Of a stretch of DNA of 64,000 bases, positions 38,006 through 41,401 are shown one piece after another. Where the stretch lies: the NCBI GenBank assembly GCA_900772565.1, contig CAAHET010000093.1:3250-67249 (forward strand), in the 5' to 3' direction. The stretch is from an uncultured Faecalibacterium sp. (GTDB lineage: Bacteria > Bacillota > Clostridia > Oscillospirales > Ruminococcaceae). The position numbers were made by a program, and so were the translations under genes. How positions within the stretch are numbered: the first letter of the stretch is position 1; every line of letters begins with the position of its first letter. Below the pieces are notes generated by a model. The model did not search any database. It was given only the letters and a program-made list of their open reading frames with translations, and was not told the DNA's origin.

Positions 38006-38698
38006 TTACAGCTCTACGCTGTTCTGCCTGCTCTTCTTCTGGCTTCTATCTGTGCTCTGCTCCTGCTCCCTCATAAGCCCAATGACCTGCTGCATCTTCT
38101 CGGCATCGAAATAGTTCCAAACTCGTCCAAAATCGCGCTTCATCGCGTAGAGCTGCGCGTTTTCGGCTTCTGCCTGTTCCAACTGTCGGCTCAGGTGGCG
38201 GGTAGCCTTCTTCTCATAGCGGCAGGGCAGATCAAATGCCGGGGTGATCTTCGCCTGCCCGGTAGGTTCCGGGTGTCTCTGCCTGTCCATGATCTCCGCA
38301 CAGGCAAGACGCAGCTGTACCCCGGCATAGGTGTGGATGGCGTTGTCGATGCAGCCGTGGTTGGGGCAGTAGCACCCGGTCATGCCGCTGTTTGCGGCAT
38401 TGACAATGGTATCGCACTTGAGCGTTGTAATATCCCCCTGCCAGAGACACAGCCCCGGCTGCAGGGGTGTAAGGTCAGCCGCATCGGTGATGCCTTTTGC
38501 GGCGGTTTCCTCTCGCAGGTACTCATCCTGTATTTGCAGAAAGTCTGTGCCGATGCGCCGTGGCTCACGGATATTCAGCAGACCCCGCAGGAGCTGCCGC
38601 TGACTGTTTGCATCTGCCGGAATGCCCATATCCCGGTAGTCCGGGTTTTCCTTCAAAAGCGACCGGATCAGAAACAGCCGCCGTTCACTCTGGTTCAT
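38006..38698 (-). CDS. macro-domain protein (ADP-ribose-binding / protein-ADP-ribose hydrolase-like) with a ~100-aa N-terminal extension
   Basis: DTIVNAANSGMTGCYCPNHGCIDNAIHTYAG matches the macro-domain Gly-rich loop. The ATG at 38698 overlaps the upstream stop (ATGA). Confidence 0.7.
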   Translation of the reverse strand: MNQSERRLFLIRSLLKENPDYRDMGIPADANSQRQLLRGLLNIREPRRIGTDFLQIQDEYLREETAAKGITDAADLTPLQPGLCLWQGDITTLKCDTIVNAANSGMTGCYCPNHGCIDNAIHTYAGVQLRLACAEIMDRQRHPEPTGQAKITPAFDLPCRYEKKATRHLSRQLEQAEAENAQLYAMKRDFGRVWNYFDAEKMQQVIGLMREQEQSTDRSQKKSRQNSVEL

Positions 38699-39300
38699 TG
38701 CTTTTCCACCGCCTTCACCGGGCAATGCTCATAGCACGCCCCGCAATGCAGGCAATGCTCCGGCTGAATGGTGTATTTTTCACCGGGAGTAATGCACTTC
38801 TGCGGGCAGTGTTTCAGGCAGGTGCCACAGCCGATGCACGCATCTGTGATGTGATACCCTTTCTTTTTAGTCTGTGCCCGCCCAACGGTATAGGTCTCCC
38901 GGAAAATAGGATTTACACCCAAATTGAAATATTCAATGGTGAAATCCTTCAGTTCAAAAACAATGCCGATATTCCGGGTGTCTCCGGGATATACATTCGC
39001 AAGATACGGCTGTTCAGCGAATATCGTATTGATTTTTTCCTCCTGATTTTCCGCAGGCATCGCCTTGCCGGACAGACGGATCATTTCCTTGAAACGAGTG
39101 TATGCGAGAATTTGCACTCGTCCATCGGTCAGCAGCTCGTCGCAGAACGCCTTGCCCCGTGCAGTGAAGAAATACAGAAAATCCGGCTCATAGTGAATGG
39201 CACTGATGCAGCGAATCTGCGGTGCGCCGATCTTATCTACGGTGGCGAAGGACAATACCCCGCAGAGCTTCATTTTTTGTAAACAGATTTGTGCATTCAT
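38695..39300 (-). CDS. pyridoxamine-5'-phosphate-oxidase-like (FMN split-barrel) protein fused to a 2x[4Fe-4S] ferredoxin domain
   Basis: The C-terminus has CIGCGTCLKHCP and CLHCGACYEHCP. Confidence 0.65.
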   Translation of the reverse strand: MNAQICLQKMKLCGVLSFATVDKIGAPQIRCISAIHYEPDFLYFFTARGKAFCDELLTDGRVQILAYTRFKEMIRLSGKAMPAENQEEKINTIFAEQPYLANVYPGDTRNIGIVFELKDFTIEYFNLGVNPIFRETYTVGRAQTKKKGYHITDACIGCGTCLKHCPQKCITPGEKYTIQPEHCLHCGACYEHCPVKAVEKQ

Positions 39301-39899
39301 TCCTTGATACCTCCAATACGGATCACACGCCCCTCTTTTCTCGGCTTCGGGGCGGGGTGCTTATCACCCTCACGGGGATAGCCCAGCAGCAGCTGCATCA
39401 CGGCATAGCGGTCGGTGGGAATGTTCCACTGCCGCAGAACTTCCTGCCCGTAGGGGTCGGAAAAGGCCGTCCAGCCCTGCCCGATGTAGCAGCTGCCTAC
39501 GCCCAGAGCGTCTGCCGCCAGCATCATGTTTTCAGCGGCGACGGCGCAATCGTCCACCGAAAAGAGAAAATCCTTCGGTGCAAACAGCGTAATGACGGTA
39601 GGTGCATCGTAAAAGGCGTTGATAAGCTTGGGGTCGTCCGCTATGCTGGGCTGCTCGCGGGAAACATAGCTGGTAGCGGTTGCCATGCGGGGATTGGAGT
39701 TTGCCCGCTTGATCTTACCCAGACGCTGGTTGACCTCTTTGTCCTGACAGACCGCAAAGATCACGCCCTGCCGCCCGCCTGCACTGGGCGCATACAAGCC
39801 AGCCTGTAAAATCTGCTGGAGGGTTTCTTCCTCGATCTGGCGTGTATCAAACCGCCGGATAGAACGGCGGTGAAGAATCGTCTGCATAATATCCATCAT
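39297..39899 (-). CDS. nitroreductase-family flavoprotein
   Basis: MMDIMQTILHRRSIRRFD...YAPSAGGRQ is the nitroreductase signature. RBS AAGGAGG at the correct spacing. The N-terminal part of the listed ORF (39297..40130) is not coding. Confidence 0.8.
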   Translation of the reverse strand: MMDIMQTILHRRSIRRFDTRQIEEETLQQILQAGLYAPSAGGRQGVIFAVCQDKEVNQRLGKIKRANSNPRMATATSYVSREQPSIADDPKLINAFYDAPTVITLFAPKDFLFSVDDCAVAAENMMLAADALGVGSCYIGQGWTAFSDPYGQEVLRQWNIPTDRYAVMQLLLGYPREGDKHPAPKPRKEGRVIRIGGIKE

Positions 39900-39900
39900 C

Positions 39901-40944
39901 TCAAAGAACCTCCTTCCAGCACTGCGGGTCGGTGGCATAGAAGTTGCCGGTCTTGCCGCTGGCAACAGCCGGGCAGCCCCGGCAGAACGCCAGCAGCTCG
40001 CACTTTGCACACTTTTCAAACTTTGTGTAGTCGCGGTACTGCTCCATCTGGCAGACCCACACATCGGCAAGCCTGTCCTCGAACACATTGCCGACCTTGC
40101 TGTTCTGGACGCGGCGGCAGGCGTACACATCGCCCGTGGGCAGAATGGTCAGGTGGCAGTTGCCGCAGTTGCAGCCGCCCCAAATTATCAAATCCATGCC
40201 ATCCTCTACGCCCTCCGGGATTTTAAAAGTGCCCGTTTCATACTCGTACAGCGTCCAAAGGTGGTCTTTCTTGTTGAAGTAGGTAGTGCAGCCGGCGGCC
40301 TCGTATTCCTTGAACTTTTTGTCGCAATCAGCCAGCAGCTTCCGATACCGCAGCGGCTCAATGCCGGTGTCCTTTTCCTCGCTGGTGGGGCAGTAGCGGG
40401 CAAAGGCAAATACGTTTGCGCCTGCGGCCACTACCGCGTCAATAATGCCGGGAACCTCGTCAATGTTTGTGCCGGAAACCGTGGTCATGACCACCGAACG
40501 GATGCCTGTCCGGTTGATGCAGCCGATCTTCTCCAAAGTGGTGTCAAAGCTGCCCGGCTTGCGGAACCAGTCGTGGGTCTCCCGCAGGCCGTCAATGGAA
40601 AGCTGATACTTCTCGCAGCCGTAATTTTTCAGCCGCTGACAGACGGCATCGTTCAGGTGGAAGGGGTTGCCCAAGATCGTGAAGGGAATGTCGTGCTGCT
40701 TGAGCAGACCCAGTAGCTGCCAGAAATCCGGATGCAAGATCGGGTCGCCGCCCGTAATATAGAAATAGGGCAGACGGTCATGAACCTCGCAGAAATCCAA
40801 GCAGTTATAGAAGGTCTCCTGCATCTGCTCCCAGCTCATGGAATCCAGATGCTTGCAGGTGTTTTCGGAAAAGATGTAGCAGTGTTTGCACCGCTGGTCG
40901 CAATCATCGGTGATATGCCACTGGAAGGAAAAATACTGTTTCAT
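39901..40944 (-). CDS. radical SAM enzyme with a C-terminal SPASM domain (candidate peptide-modifying maturase)
   Basis: CDQRCKHC (Cx3Cx2C), the GGDPIL SAM motif, and a C-terminal 7-Cys SPASM signature (WGGCNCGNC...C...CAKCELLAFCRGC). RBS GAGGG. Confidence 0.85.
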   Translation of the reverse strand: MKQYFSFQWHITDDCDQRCKHCYIFSENTCKHLDSMSWEQMQETFYNCLDFCEVHDRLPYFYITGGDPILHPDFWQLLGLLKQHDIPFTILGNPFHLNDAVCQRLKNYGCEKYQLSIDGLRETHDWFRKPGSFDTTLEKIGCINRTGIRSVVMTTVSGTNIDEVPGIIDAVVAAGANVFAFARYCPTSEEKDTGIEPLRYRKLLADCDKKFKEYEAAGCTTYFNKKDHLWTLYEYETGTFKIPEGVEDGMDLIIWGGCNCGNCHLTILPTGDVYACRRVQNSKVGNVFEDRLADVWVCQMEQYRDYTKFEKCAKCELLAFCRGCPAVASGKTGNFYATDPQCWKEVL

Positions 40945-41014
40945 ACCGTTGCCCTCGTTGTTTCAAAAAATTCCCCGGATCACTCCGGGGATGGGGAGTT
41001 GTGCGGAAAAGTGC

Positions 41015-41212
41015 TTACTGCTTGTCACCGGCGCCACAAGCGGTGCCGCAGGCAGCAGGCTTCTTTTCCTCGGCGGGCTTATCGCCAGCGCCGCAGGCAG
41101 TGCCGCAAGCAGCGGGCTTCTTCTCCTGCTTGTCAGCAGCGCCGCAAGCGGTGCCGCAGGCAGCTGCGGTGGAAGACTTCTTTGCCCAGCCGAACAGATT
41201 GGAAAGTGCCAT
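41015..41212 (-). CDS. 65-aa repeat peptide, candidate RiPP precursor: a short leader followed by three 18-aa repeats KKPAACGTACGA(G/A)DK
   Basis: Strong RBS GGAGGT 8 nt upstream of the ATG. The three repeats differ by synonymous codon changes. It lies immediately upstream of the rSAM/SPASM gene on the same strand. Confidence 0.6.
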   Translation of the reverse strand: MALSNLFGWAKKSSTAAACGTACGAADKQEKKPAACGTACGAGDKPAEEKKPAACGTACGAGDKQ

Positions 41213-41308
41213 AAGATGTTACCTCCGTAAATTGTTTTCGGACTTCGCTGTCCGTGATTTCAGTATAATCCAAGGGCATAAATCTGAAAAGTACGCACTT
41301 TTTTATTA

Positions 41309-41326
41309 CATAGTTACTTTTAGGTA
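41309..41326. promoter_or_regulatory. inverted repeat GTTAC-N6-GTAAC in the divergent promoter region; candidate HxlR operator
   Basis: tagttacttttaggtaacc lies between the peptide/rSAM operon and the hxlR-like gene. Confidence 0.35.
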
Positions 41327-41401
41327 ACCGTCTTGCACTTTTGGAAGAGGGTAGTTATAATAAGCATATAACATTCTTTTGGAAACTGTTGGAGGTGCCC
41401 T

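Follow-up and report, generated by a model that had tools for sequence, protein, structure and literature searches.

The subject of this report is a minus-strand operon in a window of 64,000 nucleotides, the whole stretch of DNA that was analysed, from an uncultured Faecalibacterium sp. (contig CAAHET010000093.1, positions 3,250 to 67,249 of the forward strand). The operon encodes a small Cys-repeat peptide, a radical S-adenosylmethionine (SAM)/SPASM enzyme, two flavoproteins and part of a macro-domain protein, and lies divergent from a gene for an HxlR-family regulator. By profile hidden Markov model (HMM) scores the peptide and the radical SAM enzyme are a member of the catalogued ACGX system. 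In relatives these genes stand together with intact genes for a Zn-macrodomain protein-ADP-ribose hydrolase (Zn-Macro) and for SirTM, an ADP-ribosyltransferase and class-M sirtuin. This clostridial arrangement, with the ACGX system at its core, adds a second, so far unreported type of extended SirTM/Zn-Macro operon. What is new here is that most ACGX operons carry SirTM, usually with Zn-Macro, plus two reductases, under a regulator of the thiol-stress type.

The native operon, driven from a single promoter, is most readily understood as a pair of modules, in most but not all cases united under HxlR-type control. Of these, module A consists of the peptide, the radical SAM enzyme and a nitroreductase-family FMN protein (NTR) or an NAD(P)H quinone oxidoreductase (QOR). 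Module B consists of a flavoprotein-ferredoxin fusion (PNPOx-Fd), Zn-Macro and SirTM. We consider it somewhat more probable than its opposite that the ACGX system belongs here to a conserved stress-type operon of gut Clostridia and that its product is a cytoplasmic, Cys-modified buffer for redox agents, electrophiles or metals.

All five minus-strand open reading frames (ORFs) and the divergent regulator gene described in an initial annotation of the window are present. The first gene (41015..41212) encodes the ACGX-repeat peptide of 65 aa, and is followed by the genes for the radical SAM/SPASM enzyme of the ACGX system (39901..40944, 347 aa), for NTR (39297..39899, 200 aa; Pfam Nitroreductase, 95 bits) and for PNPOx-Fd (38695..39300, 201 aa), in which a PNPOx/Nim-like flavoprotein is fused to a clostridial-type 2x[4Fe-4S] ferredoxin (Pfam PNPOx_N and Fer4 families). 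The last is a macro-domain ORF (38006..38698; Pfam Macro). A longer nitroreductase ORF was rejected, the true start being the ATG at 39899, which gives 200 aa. The regulator gene (41402..41746, plus strand) encodes a winged-helix protein of 114 aa (Pfam HxlR, 104 bits; cut-off 20.8).

The ACGX peptide and its radical SAM enzyme

The peptide matched TIGR04341 with 65.5 bits (cut-off 28), and the radical SAM enzyme matched TIGR04340 (radical SAM/SPASM domain protein, ACGX system) with 604.3 bits (cut-off 400) over the full model length, 1-341. Because both scores lie well above the cut-offs, the pair is not undescribed, as the initial annotation had proposed; the name 'ACGX system' is already found in public NCBI and JGI records. 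TIGR04340 is of the model type 'hypoth_equivalog', and the ACGX family was defined by bioinformatics only. Full-text literature searches returned no relevant paper on the ACGX product, its function, or its linkage to HxlR, the reductases, Zn-Macro or SirTM. The enzyme is abundant: 3,324 clusters at 90% identity match at E <= 1e-20, and close relatives occur in at least 585 GTDB species genomes in a scan of one genome per species.

The radical SAM motif CX3CX2C is formed by C15, C19 and C22, and a canonical seven-Cys SPASM domain by C258, C276, C312, C315, C321, C324 and C342, which are kept in 19-20 of 20 diverse homologues. Together with the Pfam matches to Radical_SAM and SPASM this bears out the two motifs as first annotated. 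Seven SPASM cysteines imply an open auxiliary-cluster site, as in thioether synthases. The window enzyme has no N-terminal domain of the size of a recognition element (RRE) for ribosomally synthesized and post-translationally modified peptides (RiPPs), and has no space for one, because its core motif begins at residue 15. Distant ACGX-like radical SAM proteins (P0135-P0137, P0146 and P0170; 38-45% identical) have N-terminal extensions of ~280-470 residues, in which a Pfam scan detected no domain, hence no Rosetta-stone information.

The models of several characterized families were tried and rejected. The enzyme is not an anaerobic sulfatase maturase, an identity that had been named in advance as one that, with a cognate sulfatase nearby, would overturn the peptide-maturase interpretation: the anSME model TIGR03942 gave 51.7 bits against a cut-off of 349.45. 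Likewise, PapB (NF047865) gave 53.8 bits against 340, StsB (NF045574) 60.8 against 625, SkfB (TIGR04403) 46 against 300, and the mycofactocin maturase MftC 75 against 265. The closest characterized family by HMM is SbtM (TIGR04082), with 156.3 bits against 350 and only profile positions 198-515 matched. Divergent representatives of the radical SAM family, 40-57% identical, scored 334-474 bits on the ACGX model and 128-239 bits (mostly 158-239) on the SbtM model, forming a continuum; since they score on both models, the ACGX enzymes and SbtM are taken to be sister families. The best matches among solved structures were CteB and SkfB, with E values of only ~1e-11.

A further sister family of radical SAM proteins (P0131-like), 42-52% identical and borderline on the ACGX model, was met at L093 1038-3040, L098 7755-9841, L104 7783-9011 and L128/L130 7986-9592. 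Its partners are peptides of 60-110 aa with a Cys/Gly/Ser-rich C-terminus and, judged by sequence motifs, a probable SAM-dependent methyltransferase; HxlR, macro and SirTM genes are missing from its context. Some of the contigs may be candidate phyla radiation (CPR)-like, judged from neighbouring housekeeping genes alone.

The window peptide has the conserved N-terminus MALSNLFGW.KK, followed by three ACGTACGA(A/G)DK units. Across 68 distinct peptides the N-terminus reads M-A-L-S-N-L-(F/S)-G-W, with L3 and W9 invariant, and the body consists of 1-7 units of ACG(S/T)ACGA(G/A/S)DK joined by linkers of P, A, E or K. The context of the Cys residues is A-C-G-x-x-(C/D): among 505 Cys in the 68 peptides, Ala is found at -1 in 94% and Gly at +1 in 99.4%, and position +4 is occupied by Cys (239) or Asp (256), together 98%. 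The Asp four residues past the last Cys of each repeat is near-invariant (256 of 266 terminal units). Hydrophobic residues are nearly absent beyond the leader. No signal peptide-like segment and no double-glycine site were found in the peptide sequences, and no selenocysteine is evident in the peptide.

The peptide gene was found in 71 of 72 related loci. Among 477 Ala-Cys-Gly triplets the nucleotide differences fall solely at third codon positions, and the ribosome-binding site GGAGGT (41221-41226 in the window) is conserved upstream. The gene is therefore clearly translated and under selection at the protein level, and the view of it as a real, conserved, substrate-like gene beside a dedicated radical SAM/SPASM enzyme is upheld.

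Operon composition in relatives and truncation in the window

Gene content was compared in the 80 best loci from genomes (radical SAM enzyme 83-97% identical; Oscillospiraceae, Lachnospiraceae and others) and in 47 metagenome loci, 23 of which had enough flank for counts at 55-74% radical SAM identity; all counts refer to loci with a long enough flank. The recurrent set, its order sometimes changed, comprises the divergent HxlR gene followed by the genes for the peptide, the radical SAM enzyme, NTR or a quinone reductase, PNPOx-Fd, Zn-Macro and SirTM, an arrangement seen in more than 100 independent loci. The divergent HxlR gene was present in 58 of 64 related loci. NTR directly follows the radical SAM gene in 54 of 77, and a PIG3-type QOR takes its place in 17 of 73. 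PNPOx-Fd was found in 42 of 62 loci, the macro gene in 34 of 56, and SirTM, a gene of ~290 aa after the macro gene, within 6 kb on the same strand in 40 of 48. At 55-74% radical SAM identity, 21 of 23 loci still had NTR or QOR, and 13 of the 23 had SirTM and/or macro; the gene order was shuffled there, with SirTM sometimes placed before the macro gene or upstream of the peptide. The company of flavoproteins and macro domain reported for the pair is found in relatives too, and the five-gene set recurs; the sixth native gene, SirTM, is not visible in the window and had been missed.

The SirTM of locus L029 matches the structure of Streptococcus pyogenes SirTM (5a3a) with E = 1e-71. QG replaces HG in it, and its TTN, YTQG and NLR motifs align to N118, Q137 and R192; N, Q and R form the catalytic trio of SirTM (PMC8120803). 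The best PDB matches of PNPOx-Fd were 2hhz and 2ig6 (NimA family) and ferredoxins, and its gene adjoins the macro gene on the upstream side, also in modules that lack ACGX genes. No conserved transporter or peptidase was present among the neighbour genes of the 80 loci, the largest such clusters being MATE proteins (8 loci) and ABC ATPases (5 loci). A role in anti-phage defence, considered for the combination of SIR2 and macro proteins, was rejected: among the PADLOC models none matched SirTM, macro or the peptide, and PADLOC gave only generic similarity of the radical SAM enzyme to viperin (50 bits). One marginal match, BrxP with E = 4e-4, fell on the ferredoxin part of PNPOx-Fd.

Some variation around the operon was recorded in addition. 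In some Oscillospiraceae loci two tandem SirTM paralogues of 294 and 305 aa follow the macro gene (L021 and L022, ~10960-12900). A DUF1848 protein (Pfam, 318 bits) is encoded in or beside the operon at L009 2728-3657 and in L070, L045 and L014. Ferredoxin-nitroreductase fusions and extra nitroreductase paralogues occur in some loci.

The macro gene of the window was cut at nt ~38216, and SirTM was displaced, by the insertion of a prophage with a LysR gene. The macro-domain assignment stands on the Pfam match; the gene itself is not intact and is a remnant truncated by the prophage. Against PRK04143 (NF003163) the ORF scored 194.9 bits (cut-off 272) over profile positions 2-163 of 265 only, and its alignment covers residues 1-161 of an intact relative of 259 aa in L010, which scored 357.2 bits on PRK04143 and matched 8rsi (E = 1e-79) and 5kiv (E = 1e-72). 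Homology breaks at residue 161-170 ('LPCRY|VLHTVGP'). The segment 38216..38698 is the 5' two-thirds (161 codons) of a Zn-Macro gene and still holds the zinc loop C-x5-H-x-C. The last 69 codons (38006..38215), unrelated to macro proteins and fused in frame, mark where the inserted element joins on. A search of the window for the remaining 3' portion of the gene did not find it, and the window contains no SirTM gene. Intact in this genome are module A and PNPOx-Fd only, so that the insertion amounts to a natural knock-out of the ADP-ribosylation module.

The inserted DNA occupies positions 1..38005 (plus strand) and is recognized by PHROGs matches and by GC content (45-50% in the prophage, 54-61% in the flank). 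It is more than 37 kb long within the window, its left end, integrase and att sites lying beyond it. Genes for replication, packaging, head, tail, a diversity-generating retroelement and lysis extend up to ~36.9 kb and include those for DNA polymerase, primase, terminase, portal, major head, tape measure, reverse transcriptase, holin and M15 endolysin; the LysR gene (37077-37949) stands at the end. Comparison with known phages gave only short DNA matches of 65-70% identity to Faecalibacterium phages, a hint at the lineage of the host. The same junction between macro gene and insert is present in L083, an independent gut-metagenome contig that reaches only the LysR gene, and in L081, which is possibly the window's own source contig.

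In contigs from other samples the sequence ends inside the macro gene at ~codon 113-132, upstream of the break at codon 161 (the end of L001; L082 7403-7741; L085 3154-3492); the radical SAM enzyme is 100% identical to that of the window in L082 and L085 and 97% in L001. These ends suggest that the strains are heterogeneous or that the integration site holds a long repeat. The retroelement of the prophage spans 31558-34908. Its variable repeat of 111 nt (33234-33344) lies at the 3' end of a 604-aa ORF (31558-33372), its template repeat at 33468-33578 and its reverse transcriptase gene at 33796-34908; all 22 mismatches between the repeats are at template adenines.

Regulatory region and gene junctions

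The regulator has a single Cys, C10, in the N-terminal sequence 'PACPV', and its closest solved structures are 7kd3, HypR/YybR (4a5m) and HxlR (7bze). HypR, HxlR and YodB are thiol-based sensors that control nitroreductases and detoxification genes. A putative palindromic operator, GTTAC-N6-GTAAC (consensus GTYAC-N6-GTRAC), is located at 41313..41328, ~100 nt upstream of the peptide ATG and upstream of the -35 element. Of 56 HxlR-peptide intergenic regions, 49 contain the palindrome without mismatch (0.035 expected from shuffles); its distance to the peptide ATG is constant at 100-105 nt, and it has one match in the 64-kb window (0.08 expected). Next after it, toward the promoter, comes GTAATA(A/G)A. 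With the divergent gene also conserved, the predicted operator supports the control by HxlR that was initially suggested.

A second conserved box, GTGCGTACTT (41289..41298, minus strand), has a single copy in the window and a conservation of at least 80% across 52 aligned promoters; it abuts or overlaps the -35 element of a putative sigma-70-type promoter (TTTTCA, 17 nt, TATACT; 41262..41290, minus strand) that was predicted by a consensus scan. A -10-like TAnAAT aligns at the same position in the promoters of relatives. The promoter of the SirTM module that lacks ACGX genes keeps GGTAACTA...AATA...GTGCTTACTT, in which GTGCTTACTT is a version of GTGCGTACTT with one mismatch. A pair of conserved sites ahead of the -35 would be in keeping with an activator, as for HxlR and HypR.

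Near the predicted 5' end of the transcript, folding of the single sequence gave a stem-loop in the untranslated leader, CGGAC-agcgaa-GTCCG (41239..41254, minus strand). A hairpin with differing stem sequences is present at this position in 92% of 49 distinct leaders, with a mean z of -3.1 against shuffles. With RNAalifold, run on 25 leaders aligned by MAFFT, no pairs were recovered, the differing stems having been aligned wrongly. A riboswitch or other known RNA in the leader was rejected: Rfam gave no match in the whole window, and the leader is unconserved beyond the hairpin.

GGAGG-type ribosome-binding sites precede the first four genes; the initial annotation had given one to every gene. 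Its translational coupling of all five genes holds for the last four, with a 1-nt gap between the radical SAM and NTR genes and 4-nt ATGA overlaps between NTR and PNPOx-Fd and between PNPOx-Fd and macro; the peptide and radical SAM genes are not translationally coupled, because a gap of 70 nt lies between them. This gap contains a terminator-like hairpin, TCCCCGGA-gtga-TCCGGGGA then ATTTTTTG (40972..40991, minus strand), with a GC-rich stem of 8 bp, found by a terminator scan. The gap is at least 67 nt in all 66 related loci with a usable gap, a count that excludes two exceptions, L044 (3 nt) and L056 (frameshifted peptide ORF). Strong terminator-like hairpins occur in the gaps of the closest relatives too, and a crude scan detected them in 34 of the 66 loci. 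The hairpin probably acts as a partial terminator, setting the ratio of peptide to enzyme.

Proposed function and relation to known systems

In the favoured reading, the HxlR/HypR-type one-Cys regulator would bind both the GTYAC-N6-GTRAC palindrome and the box next to it, ahead of the -35, and modification of its C10 by an oxidant or electrophile would switch the promoter on. A stabilising 5' hairpin, a strong ribosome-binding site and a leaky terminator would cause the peptide to be made in excess over the enzymes. The radical SAM enzyme would modify the Cys residues of the peptide, either by a PapB-like thioether to the Asp or Cys at +4 (-2 Da per site) or by formation of an SbtM-like 5-thiooxazole (-4 Da per site). 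The modified peptide would remain inside the cell and act in the cytoplasm as a buffer, based on sulfur, for redox agents, electrophiles or metals. NTR or QOR (NAD(P)H-linked) and PNPOx-Fd (ferredoxin-linked) may keep this product reduced or detoxify the same stressor, and in intact operons SirTM and Zn-Macro may add a reversible ADP-ribosyl switch. The function as a stress buffer is supported because the regulator resembles the thiol sensors HypR, HxlR and YodB and because the operon parallels the staphylococcal and streptococcal SirTM operon for oxidative stress. Also in its favour, the sister families of the radical SAM enzyme act on Cys or Sec in small-residue contexts, namely SbtM (PMC11002830) and the P0131-like family with its Cys/Gly/Ser-rich peptides.

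Several observations weigh against this reading. Module B occurs without ACGX genes on mobile elements (L167-L170 and L174-L178; e.g. L167 4889-8879), which carry ArdA, relaxase/Mob and serine recombinase genes; there, an HxlR gene is divergent from the genes for a PNPOx protein of 131 aa, an ECF S-component of riboflavin type, PNPOx-Fd, Zn-Macro and SirTM. An identical SirTM of 294 aa (P0297) is encoded in the ACGX-linked L173 (6001-6885) and in the ACGX-less L174 (3148-4032), which implies recent exchange of the PNPOx-Fd/Macro/SirTM cassette. Conversely, ~8 of 48 ACGX loci have module A without macro and SirTM. Since each module occurs without the other, the two may share only their regulation and not a pathway. 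Sampling from the SirTM side gave two ACGX-linked operons (L171 and L173) and many ACGX-less copies, a ratio drawn from a small and biased sample, namely SirTMs at least 81% identical to the query. Moreover, the regulator could be a repressor rather than an activator, a distant transporter could still export the peptide despite the lack of an exporter beside the genes, and both the chemistry and the function of the ACGX system are ones that we infer.

The separate occurrence of the two modules is the strength of the leading alternative, in which modules A and B are co-regulated neighbours that give biochemically independent answers to the same stress, and the target of SirTM lies elsewhere, e.g. 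in PNPOx-Fd or an unlinked protein. Module B on its mobile elements has an HxlR gene of its own and a related promoter, module A stands alone in part of the loci, the SirTM protein can be identical in both contexts, and PNPOx-Fd lies directly upstream of macro whatever comes before. Less easily accommodated are the presence of SirTM within 6 kb and on the same strand in 40 of 48 ACGX loci, the persistence of the linkage through changes of gene order at 55-74% radical SAM identity, and the near-invariant repeat Asp, Asp being the residue that SirTM modifies in GcvH-L (PMC11490716). We regard this alternative as a serious one, yet doubtful on balance.

A tentative and rather unlikely alternative is a product that binds metal: the radical SAM enzyme would turn each Cys into a 5-thiooxazole, and the repeats would chelate copper or another thiophilic metal in the cytoplasm, as an oxygen-independent counterpart of bufferin-type thiooxazole peptides. 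The closest characterized family, SbtM (156 bits for the window enzyme, 128-239 for divergent relatives), yields a thio(seleno)oxazole (PMC11002830), and one thiooxazole RiPP is described as copper-binding (PMC12538549). The Ala and Gly that flank each Cys leave the backbone accessible. The SbtM model, however, is far under its cut-off (156 against 350 bits), no metal-responsive regulator, metal transporter or chaperone is conserved among the neighbours, and thiooxazole formation leaves the strict +4 spacing of Cys and Asp unexplained. HxlR-family regulators are not known to sense metals.

The sactipeptide- or ranthipeptide-style product at first suspected would make the peptide the leader-core precursor of a secreted, thioether-bridged antimicrobial or signal, with the redox enzymes as tailoring or immunity functions. 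Such a product would agree with a precursor-like peptide directly upstream of a radical SAM/SPASM gene with seven SPASM Cys, with a C-x3-D spacing that is the same as the CX3D of freyrasin, and with a conserved N-terminus whose 12 residues could be a leader. It is nevertheless improbable: no protease, exporter or transporter, immunity gene or RRE is conserved, the scores on the PapB, StsB and SkfB models (46-61 bits) fall far short of the cut-offs (300-625), and the regulator belongs to the thiol-stress type. A secreted antibiotic is also unlikely because the radical SAM enzyme is 83-97% identical across families of Clostridia, which is more typical of housekeeping or stress genes than of an arms race, and because the number of repeats varies from 1 to 7. 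A small redox cofactor of the mycofactocin or PQQ kind, built from the repeat units by the radical SAM enzyme and flavoproteins and then excised, is very improbable, since the likeness of a radical SAM/SPASM enzyme, flavoenzymes and a small peptide without exporter to the logic of those pathways, and the presence of MftC and PqqE among the weaker matches, are set against the lack of a conserved peptidase, an MftC score of 75 bits against 265, and reductases that can stand in for each other (NTR or QOR) or be missing, as enzymes dedicated to a biosynthesis would not.

Within the favoured stress-buffer reading, a more specific proposal is suggested by analogy: in gut Clostridia, SirTM and Zn-Macro may have as their physiological substrate the ACGX peptide matured by the radical SAM enzyme. 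It would be a sulfur redox carrier made on the ribosome and built of repeats, doing the job that lipoyl-GcvH-L has in staphylococci, switched by ADP-ribosylation of the repeat Asp (or Cys) and recycled by the flavoproteins. Because the PNPOx-Fd/Macro/SirTM module also occurs without ACGX genes, this is offered as a hypothesis only, and we would expect it to prove wrong more often than right by a wide measure. If true, SirTM would gain its second known target, and the peptide would stand for a new class of antioxidant, intracellular and RiPP-like. The ACGX radical SAM enzyme is very common in human-gut Clostridia, and the gene set that accompanies it provides a definite candidate for a SirTM substrate, suggests a condition for induction, and leads to carriers that can be grown, such as Stomatobaculum longum ACC2, Agathobaculum sp. 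Marseille-P7918, Massilicoli timonensis and Ventrimonas faecis. Should the peptide be a redox buffer that protects against stress, it would suggest how strict anaerobes, which to our knowledge lack glutathione, might cope with oxidants, electrophiles and nitro-drugs in the gut.

Among known systems, that of SbtM removes four hydrogens from Cys or Sec to form a thio(seleno)oxazole (PMC11002830). The window enzyme is in the same SPASM class and SbtM likewise acts on Cys or Sec in a peptide; the window enzyme differs in lacking the ~197-residue N-terminal domain of SbtM and in scoring below its cut-off, and the ACGX substrate is repetitive. In freyrasin, PapB cross-links CX3D motifs. With PapB/freyrasin, CteB and SkfB the ACGX system shares a radical SAM/SPASM enzyme beside a Cys-containing peptide, and its repeated C-x3-D spacing resembles the CX3D of freyrasin, whereas RRE, conserved protease and exporter of the ranthipeptide and sactipeptide synthases are lacking and the HMM scores are far below the cut-offs.

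The HypR-HypO, YodB and HxlR regulons of Bacillus, under thiol-based sensors of the HxlR/MarR-DUF24 kind, comprise nitroreductases, quinone reductases or formaldehyde detoxification. As in these, the gene of an HxlR-family regulator that bears a Cys near its N-terminus diverges from an operon with a nitroreductase or a quinone reductase, and a palindromic operator lies upstream of the promoter. Unlike them, the ACGX operon also encodes the peptide/radical SAM pair and the ADP-ribosylation pair, and its operator sequence presumably differs from the YodB box.

The closest parallel is the extended SirTM operon of Staphylococcus and Streptococcus, which comprises GcvH-L, LplA2, Zn-Macro and SirTM, plus OYE and LLM oxidoreductases; SirTM ADP-ribosylates lipoyl-GcvH-L on Asp27, Zn-Macro reverses this, and the system protects against oxidative stress (Rack 2015, PMC4518038; Ariza 2024, PMC11490716; Acosta 2025, PMC12440151). 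GcvH-L is the only known target of SirTM, and for other SirTM/Zn-Macro systems both targets and role have been elusive (PMC11490716). In the clostridial relatives no GcvH-like or lipoate-ligase gene was seen by sequence inspection of the 25 largest neighbour clusters of the 80 loci (Pfam was run on clusters 0, 1 and 7 only), and both families are absent from the Pfam lists of L167-L179. The clostridial relatives and the extended SirTM operon have in common the adjacent Zn-Macro and SirTM genes, two flavin oxidoreductases and a stress theme, and in both a small sulfur-bearing carrier, here the ACGX peptide, is paired with its maturing enzyme, here the radical SAM enzyme. In the clostridial operon, however, the carrier is a ribosomal Cys-repeat peptide instead of lipoyl-GcvH-L, the maturase is a radical SAM enzyme instead of a lipoate ligase, the reductases are NTR or QOR and PNPOx-Fd instead of OYE and LLM, and the regulator is of HxlR type; the window itself departs further, with a truncated macro gene and without SirTM.

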